A DNA stretch of 61,982 nucleotides, the filler included, from Hausera hauseri (lineage: Eukaryota), in NCBI GenBank assembly GCA_046269625.1. It is 10 parts of 10 records of this genome, joined end to end, with 100 filler letters (N's around TTAATTAATTAA, not from the genome) between each part and the next. Parts side by side here need not be neighbours in the genome. Positions count along the whole stretch, not along the records: positions 22,092 to 27,321 come from JBJURY010303278.1; 9 more parts are not named here. One strand, written 5' to 3'. The position numbers and the translations under genes are program-made. This document shows positions 7,021 to 52,252 of the stretch, in pieces (position 1 is the stretch's first letter; each line of letters opens with the position of its first letter). A model generated the notes under the pieces. That model worked only from the letters and a program-made list of their open reading frames with translations. It was not told the origin of the DNA and ran no database searches.

Positions 7021-7917
7021 TATAACCATGTTCACTCCTGACTTTACAAACATATCCCACTTCACATTTCGTAAGGACATGTCGTTTGTCTAATATATCC
7101 ACATTATTTGATATTTTCTGAAGATAATTAATTGCACAATATAAAATTCCAATAATATAAAACAAAACTGAATCACGAATTTATATTAAAATAATGATTT
7201 CGTAAAACCAGTTGTTTAATAAGCCACAATGGAAAATGAAAACTGAATGTAATAATTGTCATAAGAATGTTTTGAATGGGCTTCGTCTATTTTGTGTTTC
7301 TATCCGACGTTTTGTGATTGTTAAAAATATTGGCTTCTTCTGTTTTACAATTTTCTTAATTGATTTATATGGAAAATGTTTCAGACGTGAAGCTAAAAAT
7401 AATCATGTTAGTCTAGATTTAGAAGGCAGTTGTCTGATTAGGGTAACTCATTAGTATTTTACAGATTCAATATTTTTGTTTTATTAAAACAAACAGAAAG
7501 ATCGACAAAAACTACAAGCGGACCTGAGATCGAAAATCGCTGTCACTAAAATCGGGAGTATTTAACATCCCGGCTAATTCCAACGAATTGACTTTTGGAC
7601 ATTCGTTCATTGAGTTTGGAGTCGAAACTCGTAACGATTTTATGGTGCAGCGTTGGACTGGTCTGTTCGGCGAAAAACGTTGGAAATCAATTGATTTGTG
7701 ACGTTTTTCGGAATTTCTGTATGAATCGCGTATCCCTTTTGGACGAATTTAATCCAGTCAGCGAGTGAGATATGTTTTCATCAAGGTAACAGATTTTCAC
7801 AATTTCTTGTAAAAGCGGCCATAACACTTCCTTCATGTTTAAGCTTTCATAATGACAAAGTTTATTGAAAACTTCCTCGATATAGTTTGAGTAACTTGGA
7901 TTATTTGTTAGGTCAAA

Positions 7918-8015
7918 AGATCGGGGCCCGCCTATGGGCCCGATGCGGCGGCAACGGACGCCCGGCCGTGTCCAACCAAATGGACCAGATTGCGCCGGCC
8001 GCTGTGCGCACCACA
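7918..8015 (-). repeat. Truncated 3' LTR of copy 2
   Basis: TG start directly after purine tract; GC-rich stretch ends abruptly near 7918. Confidence 0.55.
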
Positions 8016-12775: not shown

Positions 12776-13189
12776 ACAGCATTTTGTTTGTCTAACCCTA
12801 TTCGATGGTCAATTAAAACAGACTGCTCAACTTTTACGCATCTAACTAATAGTCTGATTTCTGACAAAAATATTACTGGCATAATTTTTATTTTCGCATC
12901 CTCTGATGATATTTTAGAATCATATCACAAGGATTTCTTATTAATTCTAAGTAGGTAGATGTGAGTGCACTGGCACAGCCGCCCCCCAGGATTGGAAATC
13001 AATATTCAATAATCGTACTTTTGAATTTTTGAGTTTTTAAATTTTTAAATTTTCAAAAAGTGCAGTATTGATTTTCGAAAGAGCAAAATTGATTTTTCGG
13101 TGCCAATTTCAAAATTTTTCGAAAACTTTCGGAAAAATGAAAAATATCTATTTTTTAATTCTCTATATGATGGTATTATTATAAAAATT

Positions 13190-13712
13190 TTTTCGAAAAA
13201 ATTTTTTTCGAACTCGAATATCTTTTCACCAAGTTTCCAAATAATTTTGGTTGGAAGGACAGAAATGTTCAGTTTTCCCAGCTCTATCGGATGGTATAGG
13301 TAGCAAGTCTGTAAGACGTAAAAAACCGACTATATAGCGATTCGAATATTTTGAAAAAAATTTTCAAAATGAAATATCTCGGCAAGGAAAAATCGTATTG
13401 AAGTGGGATCAAGTTTGCAGATGGAGAAAAACATTCTCTATCTTGCACACAAATTATTCGAAAAAATTTTTTCGAACTCGATATTTCGATTTACCGAGTT
13501 TTCAAATAATTTTGAGTACTGCATGAAAAATGTTTCGTTTTTTGAGTTTTATCGACTGGTACAGGTCGGAAGTCAGTATAACTTACGTTTCGAATATATA
13601 TATATATCGATTCGAATATATGGAAAAAAATTTCAAAACGAAATATCTCGGCAATGAAAAATCGAATTGACATGCGATCAAGTGGGTTAGATGCAGAAGA
13701 AAATTCTCTATC
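13190..13712. repeat. Two diverged ~265 bp tandem units inside a probable non-autonomous DNA transposon remnant (about 13020-13930)
   Basis: TTCGAAAAAATTTTTTCGAACTCG ... GAAATATCTCGGCAA(G/T)GAAAAATCG ... ATTCTCTA occurs twice. Confidence 0.75.
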
Positions 13713-13968
13713 AAGCACTTAAGAATGACGATTTTCAATTTAAGAAAAATTCGATTTTCAGTGCTTAAAATATTCGAAACGCAATAATTCACCCCTCCCC
13801 CCAAGTCGTATTGATCTGCGATTAAGTGTGTCGGAATCAGGAAAATATCCTCCATGAAATAAAATCAAAGTAATCGATTTCCAATTTTTTCGATAAAACT
13901 CGATTTTCGAATATTTTTTCGAATATTTTTTTTAATTTTGTCATGTATATGACGATATTTTATGGTTT

Positions 13969-14045
13969 AGCCCGAATGGGGTAATATGACCCTTTTTAGT
14001 TGTTGAAGATTAGCATAGATTGGACAACTGAGATCGCATTTTCCC
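13969..14045 (+). repeat. 77-bp exact direct repeat, copy 1 (copy 2 is the contig end 21915-21991)
   Basis: AGCCCGAATGGGGTAATATGACCC...GATCGCATTTTCCC identical; preceding base differs. Confidence 0.95.
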
Positions 14046-15249
14046 ACGAAGCGAAGCCAAACCTCCAAATGACGAGCATCAGCACGTGACAGAAGAACAA
14101 AATCAATCTTTGTAAAACTCTTGGCCATTTGATTGAAATACGAATTGCTAAAATTTGAGTCCCATCCTCAATTAAGTAAACAAGTAAGATTATTTATCCG
14201 TAACAGATAACGAAACGGTTCATTTTCCTCTGTTCCAGAAAAAGCATGTAAAGTACTAATCGTATTTGTCATTTTCGCGGCCATAACAGTAAAATTCCAC
14301 AATTTCAAATTACGATGTAGCTTCAAAAATATCTTAGATTTAAATTGTAACTAGAAATTTTCAAATTATAACTGACAACAAATTATTCGATAATGCATAG
14401 AATGAAGCAGAAACTGATTGATAAATTTCAAAAAAATGTCCGTTGATACAATGTATATAAACGCGTTTTTTGAATATCAAAACAACAAAAAATTAATAAA
14501 AAGATCGGGTGAATAAGACTATCATGCACTAACCCCCGCGACTCCGTTATTTTGATGTGGTACGCCGTTTTTGAGGAATTGTGAGAACGTGATGTTTTCT
14601 TAATTGAGAAATTTTCTTTTTCTAGAATGTACAAATTTATTGCAATAAATCTTGTTTTATGAAACTGAATAATTGACGACAATTTCTGTTACTTCCTATT
14701 TTACGTTATTCGTAAAATAATAATAAAACCTAACGGGAACTGTACAAAAATATATTCAAGAAAAATGAATTGCCTTTTGCTACTTGTTTCTTTACGGGCG
14801 TTTACTTAGTCATTATATACATCGAATTTCTGACTTAAGTAATTTATTCTTATTTTTAATCTCCAAGACAAATTCTGCCTTTGATGTATCCAGCATTTTT
14901 ACTATGATTTAATTGAACTGTATAATATTCATCATGATATCCACCATCTTTTAGATTAAATTCCGAATTGGAAAGTAATTCTTTGTAACGTAATGTTGTT
15001 GAGAAATGTTTTACATCAGATCGATAATTGGTGATGAGCATTAAGATATTGTGGTAATGAAATCGTTATAATGACACATGTCAATCTCTTTCCGTAAAAA
15101 TCCAGAAATTTTACGGAACTTAAGTTAGTTTCCGCATTATATTTTTATGCAGGACTATGAAAGACCGATGAATTCAGTGGGTATTTTTATGTGCTCTACA
15201 TGCTTTAGTTGGGCTTGTATTGTCATTCGTTACTTCCAACTTCAACCCA

Positions 15250-15488
15250 GGCTTTTCAACGACGATTATGAAACAAACGGTCAAGATTAAAAGATAGAAT
15301 AATTGGTAGTCTGATAAACAGCCAAATAAGAATATTGATTTTATTTGACACTAATATGAACTCTTCGGCTTCCAAAAAACACAGGACAAAAGGTAGAAGG
15401 CAGGACGAAAACCGTGCCGGCCTACCTGCACCAAACGGTGACTCTGTTTCCAAAAATGGAGGGTCATGTCCTAGAACGTTGCACTACA
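15250..15488 (-). repeat. 3' LTR of copy 3 (distal end uncertain)
   Basis: TGTAG start after purine tract; AATAAA near 15340. Confidence 0.55.
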
Positions 15489-18400
15489 TCACCCCCGTGG
15501 CAGAGAAGAAACTCTAAACCAAAACAGGAATAGGCAAAATTCATAAGAATGTTTGATATCCATTGGGTTTTGGTGTTTATAAGGCGTTGTATTCCTTCTA
15601 CGGATTTTTTCCTGCTTTAGGTAATAAATGCCACTCTGCATGCCTTATTTGATTGATTTGTGCTTGGCTGTTGAACGATATTTTGTGGTAGACGTTTTGT
15701 AAGGTTTTCTGATTTAATGTGCTGTGTTGCTTATGGTGAAGACGTTGAAGATGGTGAAGAGAATAAATCAAGCAAGAGAGACGAAGAAACTGAATGCGGT
15801 GGAAATGGTGAAAGAGGGGGAGAGAGGCTGGCTGAGAAAACGGAACAAGCAATGTAGGTACAGTAAGCGGTGCGGACGATGAGGATAATTTAGTGTGAGA
15901 GAAAATGATTGCTGCAACAGAGAGAAGTCGTGGAGAAAATTTGATGAAGCAATGGAAGGAGTGAGAGTTAAGTTAGGGTTGGAAGTAGAATCGGCATCCG
16001 GGTTGTCGTCAACGAAAAAAGCAGGCTTAAGATTCGAAATGTGAACGTTGTATGGTTTGTCTTGTCGTAAGATGGTAGCTTTATGAGATGAAAGGTGAAG
16101 CAGTTTGTATGGGCCAACATACTGAGGTTAAAAACCCGAATGTGATTGATCCTTCAGCCAAACAAACTTGGCTGAGTATAAATCCTCCGGAATGTACGAT
16201 TTCATATTGTTAAAAAGGCCACAGAAGGAGTCTAAGCTGACCTCAACAAAGCGAGACTGTGCCGCGCGAATGTTTTCGTCTGTCGGATTGTCGTCGAGGT
16301 CGGAAAGTTCGAACAGAGGACGTATTGGAGTCCCAAAAAGTGCCTCAGCTGGAGCACAACCCGTGGTGGTGGGAGGAGTGTTGCGCCACCCCAGTAGAAC
16401 AAATGGTAGGATGGATGTCCAATTGCGATGATTGTCTGTCAAGATTTTTAAAGAGATCTTCATTGTTTGATAGAACCTTTCAAGAAGGCCATTTGATTAT
16501 GGATGGTACAGTGTTATATGGAAATGTGATATCCCTAAGAGTTTAGCAAGCGATTTAAAGAGTTCCGATTCGAACTGCGGACCTTGGTCCGTTATGATGT
16601 GCCGTGGGGTCCAAAACGACTGATCCAGATTTTAATGAAGGCATCTGCTAGTGAATCAGTGTTTGCTGAACGGAGAGGAATGGCTTTAGGCCAGCGAGAA
16701 GCATGATCCATCACAGTGCGAATATGTTGATACCCGTTATCAGAAGGTAAGGATCCAACGAGATCAAGATGGACGGTATGAAAACGTGATGTACATGGGA
16801 AATGGTAAAGCGACGGTTTAAGATATTTGTTGACTTTGTATTTTTGACAGGCGACACATTCCTTAACCCAACCTTGTGCATCTGTGCGCATTGATGGCCA
16901 AAATGCATGACGTTGGAGAAAGTGAAACGTGGCTTTCGAGTCTGTATGATGAAGTGGATGCGTGTAAAAGAAAGCTGGTTTCTGCAAAGAAGGAGCGAGA
17001 ATGATTTTTTTATTACCGGTGTTAGATGTGTCGTATTCAAGGCCATCAATAATTTCGAAGGATTTAAAAGAGATAAGAATGTCAGCAGACGGCTGATTGA
17101 GCTTTAGAATTTCTGTAGAATATATTGGTTCAACCGTAATTGAGCCGATCGACCGCGACATGAAGTCCGCGACCAAATTCTCAGTACCTGAAATATACTT
17201 TATGACAAAACTAAATGTAAATAGGTACGATATCTGTCGTTCCTGCTTCGGTGATGGCTGTTTTAGTAACATGATGTGCAGCAGAGACTTGTCATCCGTT
17301 TGTATGATAAATGGACAAGAGAGAAGGATATGTTTTAAATGTTTTACTGCCAGAACTATGGCTAGTAGCTTATGATCAAATGTTGAATATTGGCTTTCTG
17401 GTTGTGTGAGTTTTCGAGAGTAAAATTCCAAAGGTTCATCGACGCCGTTGGAAATCTGGTGTAGTATTGCACCAGTATCTGTGGCAGAGGCATCGGTGGT
17501 AAGTATTAGCTCCGCGTCGGGTTTTGGATGGGTCAGTATTTCGACGGTTTTTAGGCCTTCACGTAAGTGACCGAATTTGGTGACTAAATCTGGAGTCTAT
17601 TGGATTAACTGTCTTTTCTTTCCAGATGAGAGGTGTGCGAAAGGTGCTGTAAGCTAAAAGCAATGCGGTACGTATTTATGGAAGAAATGTAGTGTGCCAA
17701 GAAAACTCCTCATATCTGTAGTGGTCGTTTGTTGTATTACATTTTTCAATTGCTGTAGTCGATCAGGTTGTGGAGAGTGGCCGTAATGAGTTATGATGTG
17801 GCCTAAGAAATTGACACGTTTATGAAAGAAGTTGCACTTGGAGAAGTTAAATTGTAAGTTGCTATGATGTAGTCTGTGAAAAATAATTCGGAGATGTTCA
17901 TGGTGTTGTTTGACGGAGTTGGAGGCAACTAATATGTCATCGATGTAAGGATAAGCAAAATCAAGACCTGAGAGAACGGTGTTGATGTGGCGTTGAAAAG
18001 TTTGAGCTGCGTTACGTAAACCGAATGGCATAAAGATGTATTTGTAAAGGCCAAATAGAATGATGACAGCAGTCTTTGGAATGTCATCAGGTGCAACGGA
18101 AATTTGATGGTAGGCTTTGTGCAGATCTATTGTGGAATACGTATTGGTGTTGTTAAGACTGTGCAGAATGTCTTTTATGATGGTCTCACCTTTTGTCTGA
18201 TAGGTCTCTGATGTTGGGTGACAATGTGTTGATAAGTTATTTAAGGAGACTTAAAACTAGAGTCCTTTTTGAGTATAGGAGAGCAAGAAGAAATGATTTA
18301 GGATTTGAGATTGGAATCTAGTGATAAAAATGATTGAGGCATATGATCAGAGGAGGCGGTGATTGTGATTTGCGAGGAACGAACGATATCGCCGCCGTCA

Positions 18401-20390
18401 ACATTCGGTTTAACGGATTGTTTTAAAATCGACTTCAATATTTGAGATGTAATTGAGAAAATAGATAAACTACTAGATGTATGGTTATCAACCGACAAGC
18501 AATTTGCCAAATTCACATGTGAGTTCGCATACTATGTGCATGTTGATCTGTCTGGTAGAAAATTGCTAACGTTCGCGACGGAGTCTTTACGTAGCAAACA
18601 GCCATACTTGCAGTCAACTAGCAGGTCGTGTGAGGCCAAAAAATCTGAGCTGATTATTGGCGATTTAATATTGGTCACGTGGAATTTCCAGAAAAAACTT
18701 GCCTGTTAAGTTTCAAAATGTGAAAACGAGTTCCATGGTACCTGCGATTCGCAAAGGTTGACCGCTGGCAGTGAAGAGCGGAGGAGAAGAAACTGCCGTT
18801 AATGTAGGGATGAAGGGAGGAGTAAAAAGGCAGCTCCTGAATCGATAAGGAAATCGATATGTGGAGCATTGCTAGAGAACAGTGTAACTTTTAACAGAAA
18901 AACTGCGGAGGAGGTGTTAAGACGGCCAGAAGACTCAGCAGTATTGTCTATGCCAGAATGTGTCGTAACATCTGGCGGCCTTTTAATTTTTTGAAGATTG
19001 TGGAGGAAAAGAAGATGACTGATAAGAAGAAGGAGAAGAAGAAGATGAAGAAAAATTGAAGTTGTTTTTGTAATATTTACATCCCGGAACCCACAATCTG
19101 GCTAGAGAGTGTAACTTTGTGTAATAAATACAGATAGGGCTGTCCACCGCATATCGCTCGTCATAAAATTTACAGTCCAAGAGACATTTTTCTGCGTTTC
19201 TACGAAATTTATTGTGATAAAAACAAATCATTCGTCCGCCGGGAGATTTAGAACGAAATGATTGCCTGGACAGGCTACGCTTACGCAATGCACGAGTCTC
19301 ATCTCACCGAGACATAGACAGATTACATAGTTGGGCTGTAATGGCGGAAATTGAATGTTGTAGAGTATCGTATTGTTTCCGCATTAATTGTAGTTGCTGT
19401 GCGCAAACAGTCGTGTCTACGTGCGATGGAGTATGCGTGGTTGCTGCAGCTATGAGTTGTGAGTTGTTAGTTTGCAAAATTTCGAAACTTTTATCAGCCA
19501 ATAGGGCAAGTTTTTCAATCGCCGTCGAGTCGTTAACGACAGTAAGGAGAGCTCTGATGGAAGTGGGCAAGGAGGAGAGGAAACAACGATGAATCAAGTC
19601 TGCATTGATGGTGGGAGTAATGCCAAGGCATTTAGGTGTAAAATAGAGGTCTGCAGAAAGTTAGAAGGCTTTTTATTGCCTATAGCATGTTCGTTAACGT
19701 ACTTCTGTATTATATTATCAATCGGTGGATCGGTAATATGAAGAACGAACTCATAAAGCATGTCATATGTTGTTGGAGAAGTAAGGATAGCAGCAAGGTT
19801 ATTTATATGATGCTTGATATTTGCTAGGAGAAGAAGTAACAAGCTGTTGGTGCGCAAGAAAGGTTCAGTAATATGATTGGCTTTAAGCCATTGTAAATGT
19901 AATTGTAGCCAAGTGCGGCTTGAATTAGTTTTATCGAGGAAGAACTCTGTGTAAGGAAGATTAGGAGAAGCAGATTGTGCAGATTTCGCAGGGCGACGAC
20001 CAGATCTTGTTTTGGAGGAATTTTGAACAGAAGGATCAGGGTCGGAACCACCCCGGATGTGAAAGTGAAGGGTGAAATGAATGATCGGAGAAGCGAAGGA
20101 AGAAAGTGAGTCAGACGGGTGTAGCACAGAACCATGATGCGACAAATAAAAGTCGGAGGTGTGTAGGAAAGAGGATAGAGACATATAGAGGGTGTAAGCA
20201 ATGTCCGTTTTACTAGTATGTATGGTAGAAATATGTGTTATTTTTAAAAACAAAAAAGAAAGGGGTTGACAAGTGATGCCAGAGGCATGTTGTGGCGCAC
20301 GGATTACGGATGCGCCCAGGTTTCCGACCAGATGATGTTCGGGCCTCATAGACGAAGGAGTAATTGCCACAACTGATCCGTGATGGCCAG
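15250..20390 (-). mobile_element. Degenerate CsRN1-like Ty3/gypsy element (copy 3)
   Basis: gag 19000-20050 with CHCC x2; RT MPFGLRNAAQTFQR/YIDD (17654-18031) with internal deletion near 18185; RH-IN 16128-17431; PPT GGGGGTGA then TGTAGTG LTR start at 15488; leader CCACAACATGCC shared with copy 1. Confidence 0.92.
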
Positions 20391-20394
20391 TGTT

Positions 20395-21640
20395 CATCGC
20401 AGACTGGTCAGGTTCTCCGTATGTGTCAACAAATTTAGAGAGTCGTGGATGTTTAATTAACCACACCTTATAATTCGAATAACCATAGAAAGCATCGATA
20501 TAACATGCATCATCGTCAATAAAAGGAATATCATCATAACTATCGCCAATTCGTAAATGGTTTTCCGCTTAAAACGGTGCCACTAAATCTGAATACAGAT
20601 CGTCATTATCAATAATCATAAAGGCGTCCTGTTAAATTTTCACCAATTCCGAATCCGTCTTTTTCAACAGATCGTCATATCCATCCAAATCCGGTGGTAC
20701 TATAGGTAATGAAAAATAAGTATTCGGTCGTGAATGCGTCGGTGATGGTGACGGTGATGTTTTTCGAAATATGGAGTTTGGTAACGTGTTACAGTAGTAA
20801 TCTTCGGAAAGTGTTTGTTTCTTGTTGGAAAATACCGATACGTAGAGTGAGGCAACGGTATGGCTCATTGCCATCTGATGGTTTGATATGAAATAGTCGT
20901 AGAGATCATCGGATATAATCGTACGAGTACAAGAATGGACATCGGATGAAATATCCAAATCACAAATGACTGCCAAATTGCGATTCAAAGTGGTGTTCTT
21001 ATTAACCAATAATTGCCCTGAAGAGTTTTGACAATGTTCTTATGCATCGTTTTATCGACCATCTCTTCTTCAATTTGATATGGAGTATTAGTCGTTTGTT
21101 TATTGTTGTTTCTATTCGGCATACATAATATTCGATTTAATATGAGAAACTGGTCCGAATGCGTTTCATAAAATTCCGATTTGTCTAATAATTCACTGTC
21201 AGAAATTGTTACATTATTGTCCAATGTAAAATCTCTTCTATGGGCAAATTACTCTGTTTTACGACATTATCGATGAGATCAATAGAGGTATTATTTCTCG
21301 TTGCTGTATTGGGTGGTATCTCGTAATCATTACCTACATCGTTCCGATTTACACACTCATGAAATATGTTTTCCACGTTTTTATTGAATATTTGAAGCGG
21401 ACTACCATATGACTCATAAACACACAAATTACGCGAGGAATTACTATTCATTGTTATTTTGTAATTACTACTACATTTTGGATACAGTAAATTTAAATCT
21501 GCGTCAATAATATCATAAGAATTTCGCGATGTGTCACACGTTAGATGATTTAATTCAAAATCATGATCGGTTTGGTTCTGTTTTTTGTTTTCATTTATGC
21601 GTTTGATTTTGTCACTTGATAATAAAATTGATTTCATTAA
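20395..21640 (-). pseudogene. Unknown AT-rich protein, disrupted
   Basis: Chained ORFs 21209-21637, 20985-21224, 20632-21009, continuing through stops to IGDSYDDIPF...FYGYSNY...YGEPDQS. Confidence 0.45.
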
Positions 21641-21914
21641 ATTTTCAGAATAATCATCGGCTTTGTATTTTTAATTATCTCATTTCTACAATCGGCAGTT
21701 TATTTTAACTGGTTCATGATCGACCTGTAAAAGTCCAAGTGACGTATGTAAATTGTCATCTGAAAATAAGGAATAATTTTATTCAGATCACTGCTTCTCT
21801 CAATTAATTTAATTTCGTTGGTGGTATTTTCTAATTGTAAATTATCACGTATTTTAATATCGCTGGCTTTTTCATTATGAATATTACAAAAAATGGAGTC
21901 GCTGGATTAAATGA

Positions 21915-21991
21915 AGCCCGAATGGGGTAATATGACCCTTTTTAGTTGTTGAAGATTAGCATAGATTGGACAACTGAGATCGCATTTTCCC
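21915..21991 (+). repeat. 77-bp exact direct repeat, copy 2 (contig terminus)
   Basis: Identical to 13969-14045. Confidence 0.95.
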
Positions 21992-22091: not shown

Positions 22092-23148
22092 TTAAAACGG
22101 CCCTCCACGGTCGGTGGTAGATGACCCTTCTTTTCTTCAACCTTAATTCCCATTTGTCTCATAACAGTTGGATGGGTTTCTATCTCTCTCACTCCGGTTA
22201 TATGCGTTACCGGTATGGCTAATTTCTTTATCATCCTCTCTACTTGATACCCCACTAAGATGTATCCATAGAGGCATTGTGCTACTTTTTGTTGCACTAA
22301 ATCGGAATCCTTTCCATGGTTTAATTGTTCTCTTTTAATCCCGGTAACTTCTGCATAAGTTTGTAGCACTTTCTTTCTCGGGTTAATGATTTTCGAATAG
22401 ACCTCGGCACAGTTTTCTTCTCGGATGGATATTTCGATCGGAATATAATTTCCCTCTTCTCCTTTCCCATAATTTATTGCTACCATTCTGATATTCCTTT
22501 CATCGGCCACCAATCTAAACGAATGTAGATGTGCGTCCTGTTCGTCCTCCATGGGCCTTTGTCTAAATTCTAAGGGCGGCAATGAGACGATTATTATCTC
22601 CTCTTCAGTCGTCTCGATCATCATCTTTACAGGTAAGGCGGTCTCACGAAATTCCAGTTCGTAGTTATGGAGATTCCTACTGTCAAATACAAATGTGCTG
22701 AACCGGGTTTGCCTTCCTTGGAAAGAGTCCCATTTTTGATCTTTCAATTAATAATAAATTTCCCCGTCGGCCAAGTGCACATATATCTTCTGTTCTTTAT
22801 CCGTTTGATACTGAGTGATCTGTATGAAGGAGTATTCCCTAGCATCTTTGTCCTCCCTCCATGCGTACAAGTATACCGCTCTGGCCTTCTCGGTTGTCCC
22901 TTTTAACCCATTTGGTATCTCTCCAACTTTCCCATACTGAACGAAGCTTTTTCCTTGTAACTCCGTACTGATTTGCCTATAGATGGCCTTTGAGTTCGGT
23001 ATTCGCACTGTTACATACCGCCGTAAAAATTTGTCAATACTAAGTCTACTTGTGTTTTCCTCATTGTCGACGCTAAGTCGGCTCGTGATTTCCTTGGCGT
23101 CGATTCTAATTTGGCTTTGGTCCATATGGATCTGACTACTTCCAAATC
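22092..23148 (-). pseudogene. ORF3 N-terminal half: unknown domain plus REX4/ISG20-like DEDDh exonuclease fold
   Basis: 22748-23125 and 22092-22747 are one frame split by a single TAA (Arg in copy H); VYSKIINP..VTGIKREQL..VQQKVAQCLYGYILVGY. Confidence 0.72.
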
Positions 23149-23245
23149 TAAAATAGAAAACATAAATGTTAATCTTAAAACAAAGGATGGTTTTAAACCA
23201 AAACCAATTCTTTGTTTTATGACAGAATAACCTGATCTGTAATTG

Positions 23246-24660
23246 TCAGGTTATTTTATCATACGGATCTATAGGGTTTTCCAATTCCCTTAATTCCCAT
23301 TCTGCATTTTTATGACGCTCAGAATAAGAGTATTTGGTAAATAATCGAAAAATCGCAATTAATGTAATGAGAACAAACGTTGACAGTATAAAGATGGACA
23401 TGATCGGCAGTGTAGTTAATCCATTTGGCGCTTGTGTGGTGATTAGCGTTGTGATTTCCTCGTCTATATTCTCATGTGTATGCGACTCGGCACGAATTTC
23501 ACCTAGGATATGTAATGTAATGGTTTGCTTTTGTTTATTTGTTGCATGTACTTGCACTATGTATTCGGTTTGTGGGTTTAATAAATTGCAATCTGTTTGA
23601 TAAGTATCTTTAAATAGCGTCATGATTTGATTATTATATGTTGTTCGACAACTTATGTATATATTGTAGTTTTGTCTCTCTTCCACAAAGAACACAATCT
23701 TAGATCGGTATGCCGAATATTTAATAGGAATGCTCCCTAATTCTCTCCTAAGTACACTGCCCGACGTAGCGATTGTTGCAATGGCAACAACTCAAGTGGT
23801 TGGTTCCTAGTGGTCAATTCTACTGTGATTTTGCATATTCTATTTTCCGGATAATAAGTTCGTAATTGTATGCTTGGTTTATTAGGTCTCACTTCGTATA
23901 AATGAAATTTTATTTTAAACTCTTGATTCACGGGTAGTTTGCAACAAGGGTGTTGCATACCTGCGCGAATAGAACAATATTCTATTTTCGGGGTTGGTTT
24001 CCTTTTTGCTTCAAATGTGATGCTGATTTCTAGGTTGACATGCTACCTCTGTTTTGGCATCTACTTGGATGCATTGTTTTTGCTTGTTTTTAGATATTCT
24101 CCGAATATTTTGGTCTAACAGTCTCACATCTGGGTTGGTAGATCGTAGCAATTCATTGGGTTTTACTCCATGATGTCTGTTCCACGCAGGGATGACTAAT
24201 TGAAAGGGTGGTTATACTTTAATATAAACTTCGGCTGAGTCTGGTAAGTATAGATGATAGTTAAGGTTATATATATATATGCCAAAAATCTATATTGCAA
24301 CACTGCGTATTTTCTCCTGGCTCAAAATCACAATTCTTCGCTTCCTTTGTTGTTACATCATATAAACCAACTTGAAATCTTCCGAAATCGTTGTGTGGTT
24401 TCCAATTCTTAAATCCAACACATACGGTTTTGGTGAGTAATAATAAATTGTCATTGATTGTAATAATTTAGCATCTTCTTTTCTTCGGATATCTTTGGCT
24501 GTTGGTTTATTTTCCGTTTTAATCGGTTCCGATTTTGATCCGCTCTTCCGAATTCCGTATATATCTCCTAACGTAGACTCATTGTGCCGTCATTGGGCTT
24601 GTGTCCTCGGAATATAAGAAGCAATTAACGATAATGCTAGAACTACCTAAACGTACGAGA
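23246..24660 (-). pseudogene. Type I membrane protein with FN3-like repeats in env position, disrupted
   Basis: Hydrophobic VVLALSLIASY signal; Cys-patterned beta-rich repeats; LNPQTEYIVQVHATN FN3 motif; TM IMSIFILSTFVLITLIAIF; tail PYDKIT. Confidence 0.75.
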
Positions 24661-25385
24661 TCGGTCTGGCAAATACTGAGGAAGTTTTTACCTCACGTTG
24701 GCGTAAATTATTACGCTTGTTTGGCCGTATTTCTGTCTTGACAACTGTTTGTACGGGCACAACTTCTTCCTTTCCATTTTTGTTAATATATACTGTAGTT
24801 GGTGTAACTCTGATTACTTCGTACGGTCCTCTGCCTGTACGGGTTAATTTCAATGAGGTGCCTTTTTTAGCTACAGGATAATGTACATAAACCCAATTTC
24901 CTTGTTCTATATCATGCGGTTTTGTTTTCTTATCATTTTGTTTTTTAAATTGTTCTTGATATTCTTGGGATAATTTTTTAGCGATCTCCCAACACTCTTG
25001 TAATCGCGTTTGTAATACCTCTAAGAAAATTTTGTTCTAAATCTTCGGGATTTACTGTGTATGGCGTCATTCCTAAGTCCGTGGGCAACACGGCTTCGCG
25101 TCCATACATCATGAAAAATGGAGCGATTCTTGTTGCTGGATGTGGTGTGGTATTAATAGCAAACTGAGTCCCTTCCAAAAATTCGTCCCAATCTTTTTGG
25201 TCCTTAGCCACTACTGTTGACAGTATACGTATGACGGTAGCATTTATCCGTTTGACCATTCCGTTACATTGGGAATGATATGCAGCATTTGTTAATCGTT
25301 CAATTTTGAATATCTTAGTGATTTTCTCAAATAGTTCGCTGGTGAAATTTCTTCCTCGATCTGTGAGTATCTGGTCTGGGGAACC
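24660..25385 (-). pseudogene. pol: Integrase, C-terminal part with GPY/F motif
   Basis: TDRG, WDEFL..TQFAINTTPH, PFFMMYGRE, GRGPYEV. Confidence 0.9.
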
Positions 25386-25389
25386 CCAA

Positions 25390-25833
25390 TTACCAATACG
25401 TCAAGCACAATATCGAATGAAGAACAATATAAATATCTCTAAGTTCGATAGTTCAACGTCTAGCTTGATGATGCTTTTCTGAAGGATTTCACTGCTTCAA
25501 GTCGCTCAACAACAATCACTGAACTTCTGATTTGTTCAATTTTCTTCAGGTTTATATACTCTTATGCTTCTCAATTAATTTTTTTATTATTTCATTTTCT
25601 TCTATTATTATTATAATATTTCGCTTTTATTCTGATTAACAATACCTTCTCGTCACTGATTAATTATTATATTGCCTACAATCTACATTTATTACATTCA
25701 AATTGATTGTTATTTTTGCAAATCTAATTATTTTCATTATACAATCCTGCGATTCATAATTAGTTCTACAATAATTAAATTCGCTTGCGTATGTACATAT
25801 TCCGTTGTGAATTCTTACAGCTGTACTACAACA
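25390..25833 (-). repeat. LTR or LTR fragment
   Basis: PPT AAGGAGGAGAAA then TGT at 25833; TATATAAA near 25555; non-coding. Confidence 0.6.
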
Positions 25834-26545
25834 TTTCTCCTCCTTGAGCGGCATCCTCGAATGTGCCCATTGTGTCAGGAGAGGTGCCGTGAGAATGAGG
25901 CCGTCGCAACATTTCCATACGTCGTCTTAGACTGGGTCCGGAGCTGGTACTTGGTTGGTTTTCTCTGGGATTTGTTTCGAGATCATAACTGTGGTAGGGC
26001 TTTATTCTAACTATTCTGGTATAGCTACCGTTTGAGTAATATTTTAAATTGGCCGCTTCGGATCTACATACGGGGCATGTTGTTTTTCCATTATCCAGCG
26101 TCAATTTTTCTAAGCAGTCTCTGCAATATTCGTGACGGCAATCAGGGTTATTTAGCACTACGTATCCCTGTTTCAGATTTGCCTCACATACGGGACATTC
26201 GTTTTCTTCCCTTTTCCAATTTTTATCGTCCAAGTCTACTCTTAACATAATTTCTATAGGTTCTGATACTAACCCGTTTTCGTCTTGGTATAAGTAAGCA
26301 GAGATTCTTTTTTTCTTCGGGTTTATGAAACTATTTTTGGGATCGCATCCTACGGATATTAAAGTCCAGTAGCTGATAGTGTCTCGATCTAAATCGGGAA
26401 CTTCACCAGTCGATCGGTATTTTTGATATTGTTTCTTCAATAATAGTTTTACTGACTTATCCACGGGGATTAATATTTTACCATTTTGTCTGGACTGAAA
26501 TATCGGGGCAACGTATTTTCTGATCTTAAAATTTTCCCAGACATT
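25826..26545 (-). CDS. RING-HC (C3HC4) finger protein fragment, C-terminal end of ORF3 of an adjacent copy
   Basis: CPVC..CRHEYCRDC..CPVC; N-terminal RKYVAPIFQSRQNGKILIPV matches KYITPIFQSKRNGKLIVPV at 48100-48180; stop lies at PPT/LTR start. Confidence 0.8.
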   Translation of the reverse strand, partial: NVWENFKIRKYVAPIFQSRQNGKILIPVDKSVKLLLKKQYQKYRSTGEVPDLDRDTISYWTLISVGCDPKNSFINPKKKRISAYLYQDENGLVSEPIEIMLRVDLDDKNWKREENECPVCEANLKQGYVVLNNPDCRHEYCRDCLEKLTLDNGKTTCPVCRSEAANLKYYSNGSYTRIVRIKPYHSYDLETNPRENQPSTSSGPSLRRRMEMLRRPHSHGTSPDTMGTFEDAAQGGEML

Positions 26546-27149
26546 CCCCAAACGTTCCCAAACCACAGGGACACTGGCAAATGGTTGCTAGTTTACAGAA
26601 TTGTGACAATAGATACTGACATAAACATCAGTTCCACCCTAGAATTAAGCTTGATGACAAACTAAATGTAAAAGAATGATAAAATAAGAGCCTTCCAGAG
26701 ATCTTTTCAAGCATTCATCACAAACACAGACAACATTTCGTTAACAATTAACAAATGTTCATGCCTCGCGTATCCTCCAGGCCATAGTTTCAGCCGAAGG
26801 ATTAAAAAAGACATGGTTTAATTTTGCAGCCGATAAAAAAACAGGTTCCTGCTTTATACAGACAAAACCCTGTACACTGACTGCAGAGAAACAAAACATA
26901 ACAGTACTTAAAAATTATCAACTTCAGTGTAATTAATAAGAAATGTAAGATGCTTTAGTTTTCACTACACCAATTATATTATTCTACTTTTGTGATGCTA
27001 GGTCTGGATAGTTCCATGATGCAGTGTTCCAGAGAACTAGACCGCATCACTAATAGTCATGTCACAGGGTAGTTTTGTGCTGCATGACGGTTTGATCGCA
27101 TCAGGATCAAGCAGCCTGAACCATCTGACCTTGTCACTCGATAAGGTAG

Positions 27150-27290
27150 AGCTGTAGTCAAACAGCGGTTAGTACACCTGCTACCCACAAGGTCAAGAGT
27201 TGATTCCCAGGAGTTGAAGGCTTATTTTCAACCAAAATGGCTATGGGGTCGACAGTCTCAACCACTGACACCAGGCAAATTTTGTGATCA
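27150..27290 (+). mobile_element. tRNA-derived SINE remnant
   Basis: Degenerate A box (AGCGGTTAG) and B box (GAGTTGATTCCC). Confidence 0.4.
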
Positions 27291-27321
27291 CAGACATGTC
27301 TACTGCATGGACTCATTTTGA

Positions 27322-27421: not shown

Positions 27422-28371
27422 TGTTTGTACGTCTGAACAAAATCCGCATTCCGACCCAAACTGATGTAATTCACATTGCTATGGGTAAACTTTTCCGAAT
27501 CGGTGGTATAACTGCCTGTTTGGTGAGCAGTCGTTTGAAATGTAATAAGCACAAATTTCATCAGTCGCATGTCTCTAAACAGTACATCTTTGTAGAACGA
27601 AGTTGAACCTTTGGGTATGGTGTAAAACACGAGTTCTCTGCGTTGTAATGGATAACAGGCATTTTATATTTCCAAGCCCAATAGATGTCTCATGTGCACA
27701 GATGGTTCTATCTTTACACGACGTACGTATAACCGTGCCTCGGTAATTTTCAGTATTGGTTTGAGATTTGCAACTGTAGTTTTCCAACGAAAGACATTGT
27801 CGCTGCATTGTAGCCGAATGATGGCTTTAACATCAGACGCTAGGTATTTCGGATGATCAAAAAAGTCAAAGTACAGCGGTTTACACATTGTAAGTGCTTT
27901 TGATGCTGCCACCCTTACCTGACGGTTTGCTGCAGTGGCGTCATATTTGATATTTTTCGTCAAATGAGTCGTTTTTATGTCTGTGCTGTAATTCAGAGCC
28001 GTTTCAATGAGTGCTTTGATACTGTATAGACTGGTGTTGTCTTCGATTTTGACGCTGTTCAGAGTCATTGAAGCTTCCTGGAACAGTGTGAGGAAAAAGT
28101 ACTTGGCCGGTGTGACATTGTATGTTGCAGCGAGAACCGTTGATGTCACTTTTTTAACAATGACTTTTACACAGAGTAGCGTATCGTTCAAATCCAGGTA
28201 TTCATTGTCTGATGCCATTATGTTGAAATGAATGTCAATGTTATCATCCGTTGAAACCGAATCAACGGAGTAGATTTCTTCAAATAACACACTGTCAATA
28301 ACAACTAGTGGCGCGCCTTTGTCAAATATACACAACTCAGATTTTGCAGATGCCATTTGTCTATCTGTCAA
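27422..28371 (-). pseudogene. Maverick major capsid protein (double jelly roll), frameshifted and cut by gap
   Basis: KSELCIF..IHFNIMASDNEYLDLNDTLLCVK..ITEARLYVRRVKI typical of Polinton MCP. Confidence 0.85.
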
Positions 28372-28375
28372 TCAG

Positions 28376-28712
28376 TCAATCGAAAATCGTACAACATCGA
28401 CGTTTGTTTATAGCTGATGAACTCGATGATGCTATACGGCATTTTCTCATCATCAAGCCACTGCCAGCGAATTGTTTTTTGACTGATTCAACGACTCCCG
28501 GTGAAGCGCTTTTTATTTCCGACAAGGCGTGTTCCTTCAGTGATGGCAAAATCGATTTATTTTCATATAGTACGTACTGTGCTGTTTTTCCTGCCACAGC
28601 ACCGATACGCTCCAACACCGGAAATGCTAAACGTGCCAATGTACGCAACCATCCAGACCCATATTGTTTACCAACGAAATACGGCAGATCCCCTCCATAC
28701 TGGGGTTTCCCG
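28376..28712 (-). CDS. Maverick small core/amphipathic protein
   Basis: QYGGDLPYFVGKQYGSGWLRTLARLAFP and FAGSG: repeated adenain-type GG/GSG cleavage-like sites; basic C-terminus. Confidence 0.65.
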
Positions 28713-28733
28713 TAAATGGAAACGATTTAAGAA

Positions 28734-29807
28734 TCAATTATGTTGGATTTGACGGAAATGAAGAGTTAGACTGCTTGTGGTACCGTACGGAAATTCAATT
28801 AGGTAGCCCGCGTCACATCCGATATTCACTTTAACATTGTTTATAGATGTAGATACCACAGGTAGGCACATTGGATTATCGAGTTTGCCAGCGACATTGT
28901 CGCCGGCAGTACAGTTGCTGCTTTCCGGATAAATTGAACGGAGTAGCGGTACAAGTACTCCACCGAACAAAATCGGATCGGTGACATTTACGTAAATGTA
29001 CATTTGACTTAGTCCCGTTTTCAGTTTGGGTTTGAGTGTTGCAACATGTACCACCGCCGTCTTCGTATTCGTCGATGCCTCAAACTTCTGTATTTCAAAA
29101 CTCAATATTATGGTCAAAGCTTTGTCCAATAAAATGTTAACAAAATCCGTAGCCAGTTTAAATTTAATGTACTCGTACTCGAAAACTTTAAATATCGCCT
29201 TGTACTTTTGATTTGAAAAGTGTTGACAGAACTGTGCTGCAGATTCGCAATAGACATTGTCTCCAATCGATACGTATGACGTTGACACAATTTCTGTTGT
29301 ATAGGTAAATTTCACCGTTGTCTGGTAATATACGTGATTTAATATATGAGCAACTATATTTTCACTTTTAATATTTGTACCTATTTACTCTGAATTTGTG
29401 AATCCAAATTTCTGCGCCATCTCAGAGAAATCAAAGTTAACAGTAAATTCAAAATCTGTCATAAAATGTAAGTTTTTCCCTAAAATAAAAACATCGATCT
29501 TGCTCAATATGCCGTAATTTGCTTTGGTTGTGCAAAAGCCCGATTCTCAGACTGTTATATTTTTGTTAGTAAGTGTCAGAGGACAAGAATATGTTATGGT
29601 TTCAGTAACAGTCTTATTGTACGTTATTTTCATACTACCTTTCAATGTCACCGGTGCGTAGAGAAAGTTAAATTCCGTCAGTGCAACCTCCCATTTTCTA
29701 CCCGATAAATCCAAAGGATTGTTTTAATTTACAATGTATTCACTGGCGGAATTGTTCAGACGAGTCGTTGGACAACTGTTGTTCGGCAACACAATGTTAA
29801 TACTCAT
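28734..29807 (-). pseudogene. Maverick minor capsid (penton) paralog 1
   Basis: MSINIVLPNNS..PLDLSGRKWEVALTEF; C-terminal MYIYVNVTDPILFGGVLVPLLRSI..SLTLHFR. Confidence 0.82.
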
Positions 29808-29851
29808 GATCTCGATGATGATGATGATGATAATGATGAGAAAGTTTGTTT

Positions 29852-30933
29852 ATTATCGAAGACGACGACGAAGTTGTAGCATCAAATGTGTCTTGGCTCC
29901 AAACAGAAATTTAATGGATTTTCAAAATTCGTCTACTATTTACACGAAAATACTGTGCACAGCATCAATATAACGGTACGTACATGGGCCGGATGATATT
30001 TACATGAGCATTTTCACCCGGTGCTTTATACGTGTCCGAATCCAATCCAATATAAGCCAATAGTTGTTTACGGTATCCGCCAATATATACGGGTTCGGTT
30101 AGATCCCTTAAAATATTGATTTGATGAAATGCTTCGTAGAGACATGGTTTCTGTTTAGCAACAATGGACCGTCCGCCGCCGGTTTGACCAAATTTTCGTT
30201 TCTTAAAACCCAGATTCCTTGCCAATAGTTCATCAAAGGCAAACTGTGTAACATTATCGTGCAGTGTAAAGGAAATACGATCATCGGAATTTAATTCAAA
30301 TGTCTTGAGAGACAATTTAGCTACTGCCTTGATGGTTGCACACAATTCTGTTTCCGTTTCCGTAAGAAAACCAATTCTTGTTGTATGGAAGTAAAAGAAT
30401 GATTCAATGTTTTGCCAGTTTACTGTAATATCCGTGGTTTTCGCAGTGGAAAAGTTAAATTTTTCACTAAATATACTATGTCCACCGAGCTGAAGACCTT
30501 TGGAGTGGACATTGGCAGATGATTGAAAACCCCATGCTTGAGCATCTGCTAGTGATTTAAACTGCAATTCAATCTGATGTTTGTGTTTTAGCACCAATCG
30601 ATTGTTTAAATGAAAAATATAAACCTCTATACTTTTTCGCTTGTAATATTTCCGCTTGTAATTGCGAACGTGAAATGTTACATTAGAGTCTCGGACTAAC
30701 TGCAAACGACTAGATGCACGAGATTGTCTTACTAGGGTATAGTATATTCTACTGTTCTCACGTATTGTTATTGGTAAAAATGTAAACGTGAATTCCGCCG
30801 AAGCCACTTCCCAGGCTCCCTGGCGTAAGTCCAGCGGCTCGTCCAACTCCATGGTAAACCGTTCAGCGGTATTGTTGTTGTTGTTGTCATGTTCTGATAA
30901 TCTGTTACTATTAAGTATCAAACAAATGCTCAT
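29852..30933 (-). pseudogene. Maverick minor capsid (penton) paralog 2
   Basis: MSICLILNSN..PLDLRQGAWEVASAEF; C-terminal DLTEPVYIGGYRKQLL..RPMYVPL..HLMLQLRR. Confidence 0.8.
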
Positions 30934-30934
30934 C

Positions 30935-31960
30935 GCTCAATCTGCGAAGCAAAAATCAAACTCCGTGTAGTGTATCCGTGCAACTTGAGGAGATATTGAT
31001 TATTCGAACCTTTGCCGCGTGAACGTAGAATTTCCTGAATACGATATACATTGGGTTTCTCGGGCAGTACCTGCAGTTCTTGTTCGAAGAATTTACCGCG
31101 TATTTCCTCGCCGTTTTCATCCTCTAAAACGCACGTGACAGGTATTTGTTTTGTGTTGATTGCCGAAATGCGGAAAACCTCGTCGCTCCAGTTCTGATTG
31201 AAATTCTTAATGAATGGCGTCCTACTTATTTTGAAATACGTACATAATCACCGATTTTATATTTGGACGTTTAATTGCCTGTCGTTATGTTCAGTTTTGA
31301 TAAAGCCGCATGTCCAAATTATCGATTACGCCAACTGGCCGTAATCCATTGATGCCACGATGTGTCGAATGATTCTATGTATGAATAATATCCGGCAGTA
31401 CATCTACCCAGCGTTTGTTGCCTTGCTTCGTAAAGAATTTGTACAGGCGACCGCGCAATGTTCGATTAAATCGTTCAACTAGTGCAGCCTTGTATTGGGA
31501 AAACACTGAGTAGTGGTTTCGCCAAACCGTTTCAAGACCGCTGCAACGTGGGCATTGTAGAATTCCTTACACAAATCCGTTTTAAATGCTTCGGTTGTTG
31601 TTTTTGTATTAGTGTCTGAACAGCGTCGGCAATCTCTTTACCGGATTTAGATTTCACAGCAATTGCACGGGCAAAACGACTAAACACATCAACACATGTC
31701 AGGATTTACCGATACCCATAGTTGATGCTGGTGTACAGAATCATTTCCATCAGATCCATTTGCCATACATTATTCACACAGGCAGAACGTATGCACTAGT
31801 TGGAAACTGCCTTCTTATCGGTTTGTTTAGACTGTATACTAACTGTTTCCCGAGCCAACGTTGGGTCTGCTGCCGAGTTTGTTTGACAGTCTTTTCCAGT
31901 ATACCCGACTGAATGACGCGGGTCGAACCAAACATTGTCTATTGTTGCCGTCGATGATGT
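30935..31960 (-). pseudogene. Maverick retroviral-like integrase with chromodomain-like end, heavily disrupted
   Basis: WFDPRHSVGYTG start; WQMDLMEM, TCVDVFSRFA, KAALVERFNRTL, RWVDVLP, QNWSDEVF, GKFFEQELQ pieces in shifting frames. Confidence 0.85.
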
Positions 31961-32099
31961 CGGTTTTGCTTTTATTACAACAATTAGAACGAAACGTAAA
32001 TGAAAGATTCGGTAAATTGGGACAGAAAGAAGAAAACCATACACATATATAGCCGAATCATCATATACTTACCGTCATTGTTTAACATTATGGTATAGA

Positions 32100-32315
32100 A
32101 CTAATGAGTCTACCCAGTAATGACGTGACAATCGGTAGAATTTCACCATGAATCCACCAACCTATCGTTTCAGTCGTTTACTACAGGCGTTGGCAAGGCC
32201 AATAAGTCGTTTTCGATACTTTAGTAAATTCCGCTTTTCACTACCAATGTCAACGTGACCCACGACGATATTGTACAAAATTTCCATCAAATCGTCTACT
32301 ACAAACTGTGGGAAT
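32100..32315 (-). pseudogene. Maverick basic core protein fragment
   Basis: LMEILYNIVVGHVDI..LLKYRKRLIGLA..GGF pattern typical of the small gene upstream of Maverick integrase. Confidence 0.6.
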
Positions 32316-33586: not shown

Positions 33587-34805
33587 GCGGAGGTCAAACT
33601 GGTAAAACAGTCATCAATTTTCACAGAAAACTATAAATTAAAAGCTCATAAATTAGTCTTAAAAAAAAAGGCTCCAAACTGCTCCAAAGCTGTTTCTCCC
33701 TCTGTTCTTATCAGAGAGATTGTGTGTGTGTCCGCGGTGCTGCAGGCAGACTGCCGGACGCATCTCTCTCTGCTTTTCTCCTTGTAAATTTTATTGCTGC
33801 GTTTCATGTGTTGTGCCTTCAGAGTAAAATTGTGTCTAAAGAAGCAGACGTGTTTCTGTGGCATAGTTTAATTATTCTCTGTTGTGTTTGTTGTTATTCG
33901 TGTTTGTTGTAGAAAGAGAAAGAAAGAGAAAGAAAGGTGGTTGTGCATGCAAATTGTTTTATGATCGATCAGGGCGAGTATTCGCTTGGGATAATTGTCC
34001 GCTTGTCCGCATATTCCGGAAAGCCTGACAGTTTTTCCCCACTTCGTGTTGACTTTTTCTGCTTTGGCCAAGTAGAGAGTTGGCGCCTGCTTATTTCATA
34101 AGCTAAGGTAGAAGTGTTTGTCGCTGCGTAAATACTCCGTTTTAAGCTACGGTTTTTAGCGGTTGCGGTTGACTTATTCTGTCAGCGTGATACTGACGGA
34201 TTTCCAGAGCTTTGTGTTCTGAAGAACAGACTTTCTGTGTCTGTTGGTAGAAGGGACCATCGCTGCGTGCGTTTGGTCATTGTGTTTCGTGATTTACGGT
34301 ATTAAAACCGTGTTGGTTGGTGGAGTGTCGCTACTGTGGTAGCTACGCCATTGTTGAACAGAGAAACACTGTTCTTGAAGCCGCTCCCCCCCAGGGTAGA
34401 GCATTCCTCTCTTGTGAGTGAGAGAGAGAGAAAAAAAAAAAGATCTTTTAAAAGAAACCAGAAAGGTTCAAACTTGTTGTGGTGTTTGTGTTGATACTCT
34501 GTCCACGAGTGGAAGAGTCAGAGAAATACTTTAAAACTCTTAGTGTTTTAAAGTTACGCCGCTGAGCGTTTTTCTACAGTGTTAAATCACTAAAGCAGGA
34601 GACAAGGACACCTCCTCGCTCAGGCGAAACAGAGTTTCCGCCATCTTGAAAAGAGCTAACAGGTTCTGTTAGAGTCCGTCCCTTCCAGAGGGCGGAGTGT
34701 TCACTCTCAGTGAGTGAAGAAAAAAAAGAGCAGTGTTGAGAGAAACTCAACCTGAAACAGCATTTTGATCTGTTGGTCTTTAAAAAGACTTAAAAACAGC
34801 TCAAC

Positions 34806-36242
34806 ATGGCTGAATCAAGTGATAAAATAAATTTGCTCATGGAAATGATGGAAGACATTGAAAGTGCTTTCAATTGGCTACGTGTCTTTCAATTATCAAG
34901 TCGTTTCCGTGAAATTCTACACGACTTTCACAAAGAGCACCAGGACCAAACTGAAAAAATTGAGACTCTTGAACATAAAATCAAGGTTCAAGGGGGAATT
35001 ATCGATTATCAGAAAACTTTGGTTCAAAGAAAGGATGATAAAATTGAGGAGTACCAAGTCCAAATTAAGGAGAAAGAAGTTCTCGCACAAAAAAAAAAAG
35101 ATTTGCTCCTGGACAATATAGCCCTCCTTGTAAAAACTACAGATCAGGCCCGTCGACTTGAGGATGCTGAACGAGAAATCAAGTGTCTGAACAAGGTGAT
35201 ACGGAAAAAAGAAAAATTCAAACAATGGCGTGACGCACGTATTCGTGCCACAAAGAAGCAATTTGAACAGTCCCTTGCTAAAAAAGACAAAATCATTCAA
35301 AGCATGGCTTTAGAACTGAGAAAACTCAGAACACCTAGTGTTTCCCCAGATGAGCTTCAGAGTGGAGATTCCACAGATTCAGATAAGGATCTGAGCAGAG
35401 CCTCCTGTCAGGCAGAAGATGAGTGTTCATCTGAGCTTCCTGACAACAGTGACTCTGTAAAATCCATTTCTGATTCACCTGACTCAGGTTCAAAACCAGT
35501 TCCTGAGCCACCCACTAGCCCTGAGGAGCTAGTGGTCCAGGCTACTACCAGTTCACCTGACACCCGTCCTCATGACAGTGGACAGGATGTCGAGGAGTCT
35601 GAGATAGTTCCTCGACCTTCCTGCGAACTGGAGGAGAGGGGGGTGACTGAAAGTCTGCCTGTGACAGTGGAGGTGCTGTTAGACGAGGAATCAGACATAC
35701 CTCTGAGTACGTCTGTCCCCTCTGAGGGGGGGCCGAGTGCTACAGCAGAAAATCCTAATGTGAAGCTCACTTTTTCATCAGAGAACGGTGGTTTGGTGAG
35801 AGAAGTCTCACCTCAGTCAGATGAGGCACAGGTGAACACACCTGAGCCCTCTCTGCGTCCTGTTGAAGCCATGAGTGGCCTTTTGACCTCTGACATGGCC
35901 CGAGCCATGCAGTCGTCAGGCCCTGCCTTTGTGATGTCTTGGGGTCAGAAAAACATGCTGTTAAAACCTGTCTGTAAGCCGCCGCGTACAGAGCCCAAAA
36001 AGAGCAAGCCAAAGGTCAAAGCAACACTCAGAGTGTTGAAACAAAAGGCCTACTGGAACAAAGTGGGAAGATATGTCAAAAAACATATCAAAGCTTTCCT
36101 GGTTGTTGACCGGTCGACAGAGCCACCTCTGTCAGGTTCCAGAAGTGGAACCTTCCCTCGGAAAGAGCTCTATGGAAACCAAATAAACCCTTTTGAAGTT
36201 CTTTCTAGCTTCCTAAAAGACAAAACTCTTCCAGGTGACTGA
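34806..36242 (+). CDS. 478-aa coiled-coil / acidic disordered protein of a non-autonomous LTR element (Bhikhari/crestin-like by architecture)
   Basis: Intact ATG ORF in good context (CAACATGG); K/E-rich heptads about aa 40-175; S/P/E-rich middle; no gag/pol motifs; downstream of LTR and PBS. Confidence 0.7.
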   Translation: MAESSDKINLLMEMMEDIESAFNWLRVFQLSSRFREILHDFHKEHQDQTEKIETLEHKIKVQGGIIDYQKTLVQRKDDKIEEYQVQIKEKEVLAQKKKDLLLDNIALLVKTTDQARRLEDAEREIKCLNKVIRKKEKFKQWRDARIRATKKQFEQSLAKKDKIIQSMALELRKLRTPSVSPDELQSGDSTDSDKDLSRASCQAEDECSSELPDNSDSVKSISDSPDSGSKPVPEPPTSPEELVVQATTSSPDTRPHDSGQDVEESEIVPRPSCELEERGVTESLPVTVEVLLDEESDIPLSTSVPSEGGPSATAENPNVKLTFSSENGGLVREVSPQSDEAQVNTPEPSLRPVEAMSGLLTSDMARAMQSSGPAFVMSWGQKNMLLKPVCKPPRTEPKKSKPKVKATLRVLKQKAYWNKVGRYVKKHIKAFLVVDRSTEPPLSGSRSGTFPRKELYGNQINPFEVLSSFLKDKTLPGD

Positions 36243-52249: not shown

Positions 52250-52252
52250 GTA

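Follow-up and report, generated by a model that had tools for sequence, protein, structure and literature searches.

Our analysis leans towards a picture in which the integrase of a retrotransposon family from Hausera hauseri is followed by a conserved single-pass membrane protein with three predicted fibronectin type III (FN3) units, likely released from Pol through an internal signal and serving in binding or adhesion rather than as a fusogen. The window, that is the whole stretch of 61,982 nucleotides analysed (assembly GCA_046269625.1), consists of ten short contigs with N spacers between them. Two of these, C (22092-27321) and H (48083-52563), are separate short contigs that carry decayed copies of one gypsy-type element, with 74% nucleotide identity over 2249 aligned columns. 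The layout is the same in both: integrase, a signal-like hydrophobic segment, three beta-sandwich units, one transmembrane (TM) helix and a tail that finishes with Y-x-K/R-I-T; the H copy runs from the integrase core to YDKIT at 49988-52230 (minus strand). Gag, protease, RT and LTRs are absent from both contigs. The family is high-copy and abundant in the public run X1: 8448 of its contigs match contig C with a likeness of at least 80%, as do 541 contigs of run X2.

The integrase core of C (24981-25390, minus strand) is truncated at its 5' end and matches Pfam rve with an E value of 0.0044, and its counterpart in H scores above the cut-off (E 4.9e-9). The best PDB matches of the integrase are PFV integrase (7e-10) and Ty3 Gag-Pol (4.8e-5). 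Its C-terminal part, with the GPY motif and a basic linker, is an open frame at 24671-25036 (minus strand), in frame with the signal-like segment. The GPY motif is found in both copies (24829-24821 on the minus strand of C), and the GPY block is 93% identical between them at the amino acid level. An rve core with a C-terminal GPY/F module would place the element, on sequence grounds, in Ty3/gypsy (Metaviridae). Just upstream of the H integrase, in the opposite orientation, lies an open frame (52241-52555, plus strand) that had no match in the Pfam scan and presumably resembles a gypsy protease-RT linker.

The window holds further mobile-element sequence. In 1-12675 and 12776-21991 there are three related pol regions of gypsy type, with a strong GC skew and a mutual identity of about 65%, two of which stand in tandem on contig A. 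Their integrases share just 24-41% identity with the C and H integrases. An identical 77-base direct repeat is found at 13969-14045 and 21915-21991, 7.9 kb apart and with the second copy ending at the contig edge, and the pair is probably the LTRs of a recent insertion. The ORFs in 27422-32315 and 52664-56611 look to us like those of Polintons or adintoviruses (capsid-like, integrase-like and protein-primed polymerase); two ORFs scanned from these regions gave no Pfam match. A mariner-type transposase (E 4e-20) stands beside an ORF that encodes a ubiquitin-like domain (E 3e-4) at 39245-41182, and a 482-codon open frame at 34794-36242 (plus strand) had no match in the Pfam scan. A 126-base direct repeat (42399-42524 and 47857-47982, 93% identical, 5.5 kb apart) encloses an 87-base inverted pair.

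Read along the minus strand, the C frame stays open past GPY, from 25036 down to 24650, and then meets a stop (24649-24647), with the hydrophobic segment following. In H a sense codon stands at the position of this stop and one base is missing three codons later. Both observations had been made in a first-pass annotation of the sequence and were reproduced here. The annotation had proposed comparing CAG with TAG at the junction in more copies, and the interval 24540-24760 was inspected in 412 X1 contigs and 23 X2 contigs; these are contigs, not transcripts, and X1 may be the source sample. A sense codon stands at the junction in 56 contigs from X1, with 96% of the summed depth, and in 11 from X2, with 92%; there is no conserved stop. 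The next stop (24592-24590) is likewise private to C, with a sense codon in 46 X1 and 6 X2 contigs. The sole indel listed in the interval is a 2-base loss in one X1 contig and two X2 contigs, and one contig skips 50 bases. Given the sense codon in the run contigs and the lack of a common indel, C-like copies read through from the integrase, with one continuous frame into the membrane protein, and the junction stop is private to C.

The frame is maintained as protein across this junction. At least 38 positions vary in 24540-24760 (40 rows, two of them beyond the listing); of the 38 listed, 20 are at the third codon position, 16 at the first and 2 at the second. The counts at third, first and second positions are 10/6/1 upstream of the junction and 9/9/1 downstream, the same pattern on both sides. 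The linker from GPY to the signal is also kept as protein between C and H, with a pN of 0.13 against a pS of 0.45 (23 codons). Purifying selection acts on both sides of the junction between integrase and membrane protein. No in-frame ATG is present in C from 25036 to 24593. No contig spanning GPY to the signal was found among the X1 and X2 contigs listed, nor was a Pol-fused relative found among proteins of 840-2395 aa in a search that is weak by the tool's own note.

The signal-like segment (24596-24670, minus strand), which the junction stop interrupts in C, is a predicted internal signal peptide, with a basic n-region, a hydrophobic core of about 11 residues and a T-Q-A cleavage-type end, which we take to be the signal-peptidase site by the -3/-1 rule. 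A search of 1.84 billion representatives returned two true and independent relatives of the membrane protein (E 4e-36 and 3e-34) and one chance match to a repeat protein. The intact natural relative P0003, of 479 aa and from one 4.9-kb ENA contig, keeps the signal, the cysteine pattern, the TM helix and the tail. Its signal-like segment is 77% identical over 26 aa, and the best 19-mer hydropathy there is 1.38, below TM level. In the reading that we favor, this internal signal would route the ectodomain into the ER, signal peptidase would cut after T-Q-A to give a type I FN3 protein, and the integrase would stay tethered by the leftover peptide until freed by the element's protease or by signal peptide peptidase. 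The protein would probably also be made separately, from a spliced RNA or from a nearby Met.

Such a separate start could be the main source. P0003 is called as a free-standing ORF whose Met lies ten residues ahead of the conserved segment. In H an in-frame ATG (51350) stands by the signal-like segment. The similarity of P0003 to C begins at a candidate splice acceptor (24666-24668, minus strand), a YAG that follows a run rich in pyrimidines and closely precedes the signal-like segment. This acceptor ranks 3 of 89 YAGs in C, and the matching one in H (51355) ranks 6 of 115, with six tied, by a simple and crude count of pyrimidines before YAG. A stronger candidate precedes the downstream gene (23148-23175, minus strand) and suggests that the element splices: it is top-ranked in C (23148, 1 of 89) and in H (49891, 1 of 115), each time tied with one other. 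The matching acceptors in the two copies suggest spliced subgenomic RNAs, which the ORF3s of rotifer elements are said to use in the part of that study covered (PMC5408684). Most of the working protein might derive from a spliced subgenomic RNA or from initiation at its own Met, with the fusion a by-product of the shared frame. This is compatible with the other readings and seems to us possible, if on the unlikely side. The integrase of C-like copies has no terminal stop and any Pol made would carry the extension, and the linker is conserved as protein. The first-pass claim of an in-frame fusion by an internal signal therefore stands for the read-through of C-like copies, but is not established as the sole route, and the P0003 start and the H ATG indicate that the integrase fusion may not hold in all subfamilies.

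The membrane-protein gene is damaged in both copies, by four in-frame stops (24649-24647, 24592, 24214 and 23794) and four frame changes in C and by one stop and six frame changes in H. Behind the signal it has a charged N-terminal segment (24430-24595, minus strand) that forms a helix in the low-confidence model of P0003. Three cysteine-patterned units follow on the same strand: FN3-like unit 1 (24215-24440, two frame changes in C), FN3-like unit 2 (23880-24110, one frame change in C) and FN3 unit 3 (23486-23749). The single TM helix (23348-23410, minus strand; 21-mer hydropathy 2.2-2.8) has a predicted type I orientation, with 0-2 K/R before and 4-7 after it in all four sequences, and P0003 has no further hydrophobic segment of TM strength. 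The cytoplasmic tail (23246-23347, minus strand) has 30-33 aa with the pattern RE-x-E-x-P...Y-x-K/R-I-T-stop in four of four sequences, and ends YDKIT-stop in both C and H. The units, the TM helix, YDKIT in both copies and a tyrosine-type YxxI tail had all been noted at first pass and were all recovered. We take the Y-x-K/R-I-T end to fit the YxxPhi sorting motif, by which the tail could sort the protein to the surface or recycle it from there. A Thr-rich stalk before the TM helix had also been claimed; 6-8 of 30 residues are S/T there, but the richest stretch of P0003 lies between units 2 and 3 (13 of 31). P0003 has four N-glycosylation sequons.

Both copies in the window are badly decayed, as would be expected of a captured host gene fragment carried as a passenger without function. 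Selection largely refutes such an origin, which we regard as highly improbable. Between C and H the membrane gene has a pS of 0.48, a pN of 0.19 and a dN/dS of about 0.28 (Fisher p 2e-17; 344 codons in five in-frame blocks, three of ten blocks having been misframed and left out), and the integrase core has a dN/dS of 0.06; decay after insertion presumably inflates these ratios. Moreover, four diverged versions retain the signal, the cysteines, the TM helix and the tail, and coverage by run contigs is continuous across the membrane gene and the integrase in both X1 and X2. The membrane gene is under purifying selection.

The fold was predicted with AlphaFold and compared with Foldseek. Unit 3 alone is modeled with seven strands (pLDDT 80.8, pTM 0.71), and its matches are monobodies and named FN3 domains (probability 1.00, TM-score 0.51-0.67, best E 2.7e-3, none below 0.001); four of the 43 rows listed are other sandwiches, two de novo Ig and two DUF3244. 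Unit 3 is thus predicted with confidence to have an FN3 fold. Units 1 and 2 are repeats of each other in P0003 (0 of 1000 shuffles reached the score), unit 2 has a weak likeness to unit 3 (24 of 1000), and units 1 and 3 show no detectable likeness (603 of 1000). The strand pattern of units 1 and 2 is compatible with FN3 at pLDDT below 50, and the whole model has three-domain FN3 matches; an FN3 fold is predicted for these two units with low confidence. The whole P0003 model is poor (pLDDT 42), with three beta-rich units, the N-terminal helix and the TM helix visible. Judging by title or domain content, the 43 PDB matches listed for it are proteins with tandem FN3 domains, among them fibronectin 10-12 (best E 4e-7) and gp130 D4-6, at TM-scores of 0.12-0.15. 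Pfam fn3 (PF00041) gave 13.0-15.2 bits on the membrane protein against a curated cut-off of 25, unit 3 remaining below it with an E value of 0.026. The neighbors by protein language model are FN3 proteins with a TM helix, the first matches (0.91 and 0.88) being weak by the tool's own scale. The FN3 signature LxPxTxYxVxVxAxN, earlier read from the repeats, is complete in unit 3 only, the unit for which the FN3-type fold was also predicted with confidence.

The same matches bear on whether the protein could fuse membranes. In agreement with the earlier proposal of a non-fusogen, no class I-III fusogen occurs among the named AlphaFold/Foldseek matches in the PDB and viral rows listed. Most of the 50 viral matches listed fall to phage tail proteins, FN3/Ig proteins and proteins that are uncharacterised or unnamed, with a few herpesvirus membrane proteins, and 10 of the 50 are nameless. 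An errantivirus F- or gB-type Env was considered and rejected, there being no such structural match listed for a whole model of low confidence and no furin-type R-x-K/R-R site in P0003. A class II (Gc-type) fusogen was also rejected: no class II match is listed, and three short units, the first two of them internal repeats, leave no room for domains I and II. We infer that the FN3 product probably binds, in attachment or adhesion, rather than fuses.

Its place directly behind the integrase, with type I topology and a sorting-type tail, would fit the term Env slot used at first pass. The position is borne out, but replacement of Env is unproven. The FN3 protein might be the only envelope-position protein of the element, which would then have no fusogen and would use cell contact for capsid transfer, and for MDG1-group elements of Drosophila the portion of the source covered describes transfer without Env by means of a small membrane protein (PMC11952523). 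We nevertheless find this unlikely: FN3 repeats offer no means of membrane merging, the region upstream of the integrase is absent from both contigs, and flatworm errantiviruses, like those of nematodes and bryozoans, are GAG-ENV-POL as far as the survey was covered (PMC13524379). The fusogens of published flatworm elements and of Burro sit between gag and pol, in the region absent from C and H, so a fusogen could sit upstream here. An accessory partner of such a fusogen is therefore slightly more likely than a replacement of Env. It would mean a separate attachment protein in a retrotransposon; two-component entry by attachment and fusion proteins is found in paramyxoviruses and herpesviruses. 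A stand-alone protein would mean spread between cells free of a fusogen, and it is doubtful that this is a reverse-transcribing lineage with a tandem-FN3 adhesion protein as its sole surface protein, cut from Pol by signal peptidase and spreading by contact without a class I-III fusogen. On either reading the integrase would be made membrane-tethered, which adds a processing step.

Downstream of the FN3 gene, an accessory ORF (22092-23125, minus strand) has one stop and ends at the contig edge. It is a probable DEDDh-type pseudo-exonuclease region by sub-threshold similarity: it has no Pfam match, and its matches to ISG20L2, ISG20 and SDN1 (E 0.45-0.91) rank under chance SUMO matches. Its pN is 0.23-0.25 against a pS of 0.79-0.98. 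A RING-finger ORF (25826-26587, minus strand; Pfam zf-RING_2, E 4.9e-8) stands upstream of the integrase in C, and the beginning of this ORF aligns with the end of contig H at 65% over 40 aa. The RING ORF thus comes from the 3' region of the family, whose order runs from integrase through the FN3 membrane gene and the pseudo-nuclease region to RING, and C is a rearranged or tandem-deleted locus. In C the RING gene and the truncated integrase (25390-26587) are about 430 bases apart, with low-depth, AT-rich DNA between them, and a single X1 contig matches 25390-25857 with no differences.

These downstream genes look like counter-defence cargo, judging from their sequence, and could form a kit with a host-manipulation protein. 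The FN3 protein would then be a cytokine-receptor-like decoy or signaling mimic whose tail tyrosine is a phosphorylation/SH2 site. Its structural and language-model neighbors include domains of gp130, IL-11R, IFNAR1 and IL-3R, and acidic residues precede the tail tyrosine. However, at 7-19% identity the receptor matches reflect no more than a shared fold, the search of 1.84 billion representatives found no homologous host receptor, and the tail has only 30-33 aa; we consider a decoy or mimic improbable.

The conservation of the tail may also have a component at the nucleotide level. The last codons and the adjoining 3' non-coding DNA form a highly conserved element (23199-23263, minus strand), the top 60-column window between C and H (90%) and more conserved than the GPY block. 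In X1 its summed contig depth, which does not equal copy number, is some ten times the depth over the gene. The 3' end of the gene recurs in 28 X1 contigs that continue upstream with unlike sequence. Since the tail codons overlap this window and the 28 contigs differ upstream, a cis-acting element may add to their conservation.

We return to the adhesion-type protein favored here for the comparison with known systems. Cellular FN3-TM proteins (FNDC5, FNDC9, cytokine receptors, contactins) share the predicted fold and the type I layout, but no sequence homology to them was detected, and the disulfide-type cysteine pattern and the tail are specific to the retrotransposon family. The giant gypsy-like elements Burro and GYPSM1 of planarians carry an in-frame F-type Env before the protease, inside the polyprotein (PMC6431247). 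Burro is similar in its gypsy-type pol, in a membrane glycoprotein within the polyprotein frame and in its many accessory domains, including a RING-containing motif; it differs in that this glycoprotein, placed between gag and protease, is a fusogen of F type, and in the part of the paper covered no cargo after the integrase is named and fibronectin does not occur (PMC6431247). A Burro-type element has a very long internal region and carries Env, along with apoptosis/ubiquitin domains, between gag and PR, a part absent from C and H. Ty3/gypsy errantiviruses have a comparable order, a gypsy integrase and then a gene with signal, ectodomain and TM helix, but all Envs described in the main text of the survey, as far as covered, are F or gB fusogens, and neither fibronectin nor immunoglobulin occurs there (PMC13524379). 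A screen by known Env homology, such as theirs, would presumably miss an FN3-type protein (PMC13524379). More generally, surveys of envelope-bearing retrotransposons seek known fusogens, and a conserved FN3 surface protein behind the integrase would be a class of cargo that they miss.

Two systems come closest in organization, again as far as the sources were covered. Atlas virus encodes Gag, Pol and Env in frame as a single polyprotein and, with the nematode belpaoviruses, has its envelope region in one frame behind the integrase, but it belongs to the Belpaoviridae and its envelope is a phlebovirus-like Gn/Gc class II fusogen (PMC9094657). Domain III of this fusogen has FN3 topology (PMC9094657), whereas the protein described here has three short repeated sandwiches and no domain I or II. 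The Juno and Vesta elements of bdelloid rotifers have cargo other than fusogens behind pol, among it DEDD exonucleases and small TM proteins; these are separate ORF3s, the exonucleases are of DEDDy type with intact catalytic residues, and the part of the study covered has no FN3 protein (PMC5408684). The literature searched, whose scope stops short of supplements, Repbase and the primary Burro paper, yielded no LTR element described as carrying a tandem-FN3 type I protein. In-frame Pol-Env, as in Atlas virus, and non-Env cargo after pol, as in the rotifer elements, are each known separately; FN3 cargo behind the integrase appears to be new.
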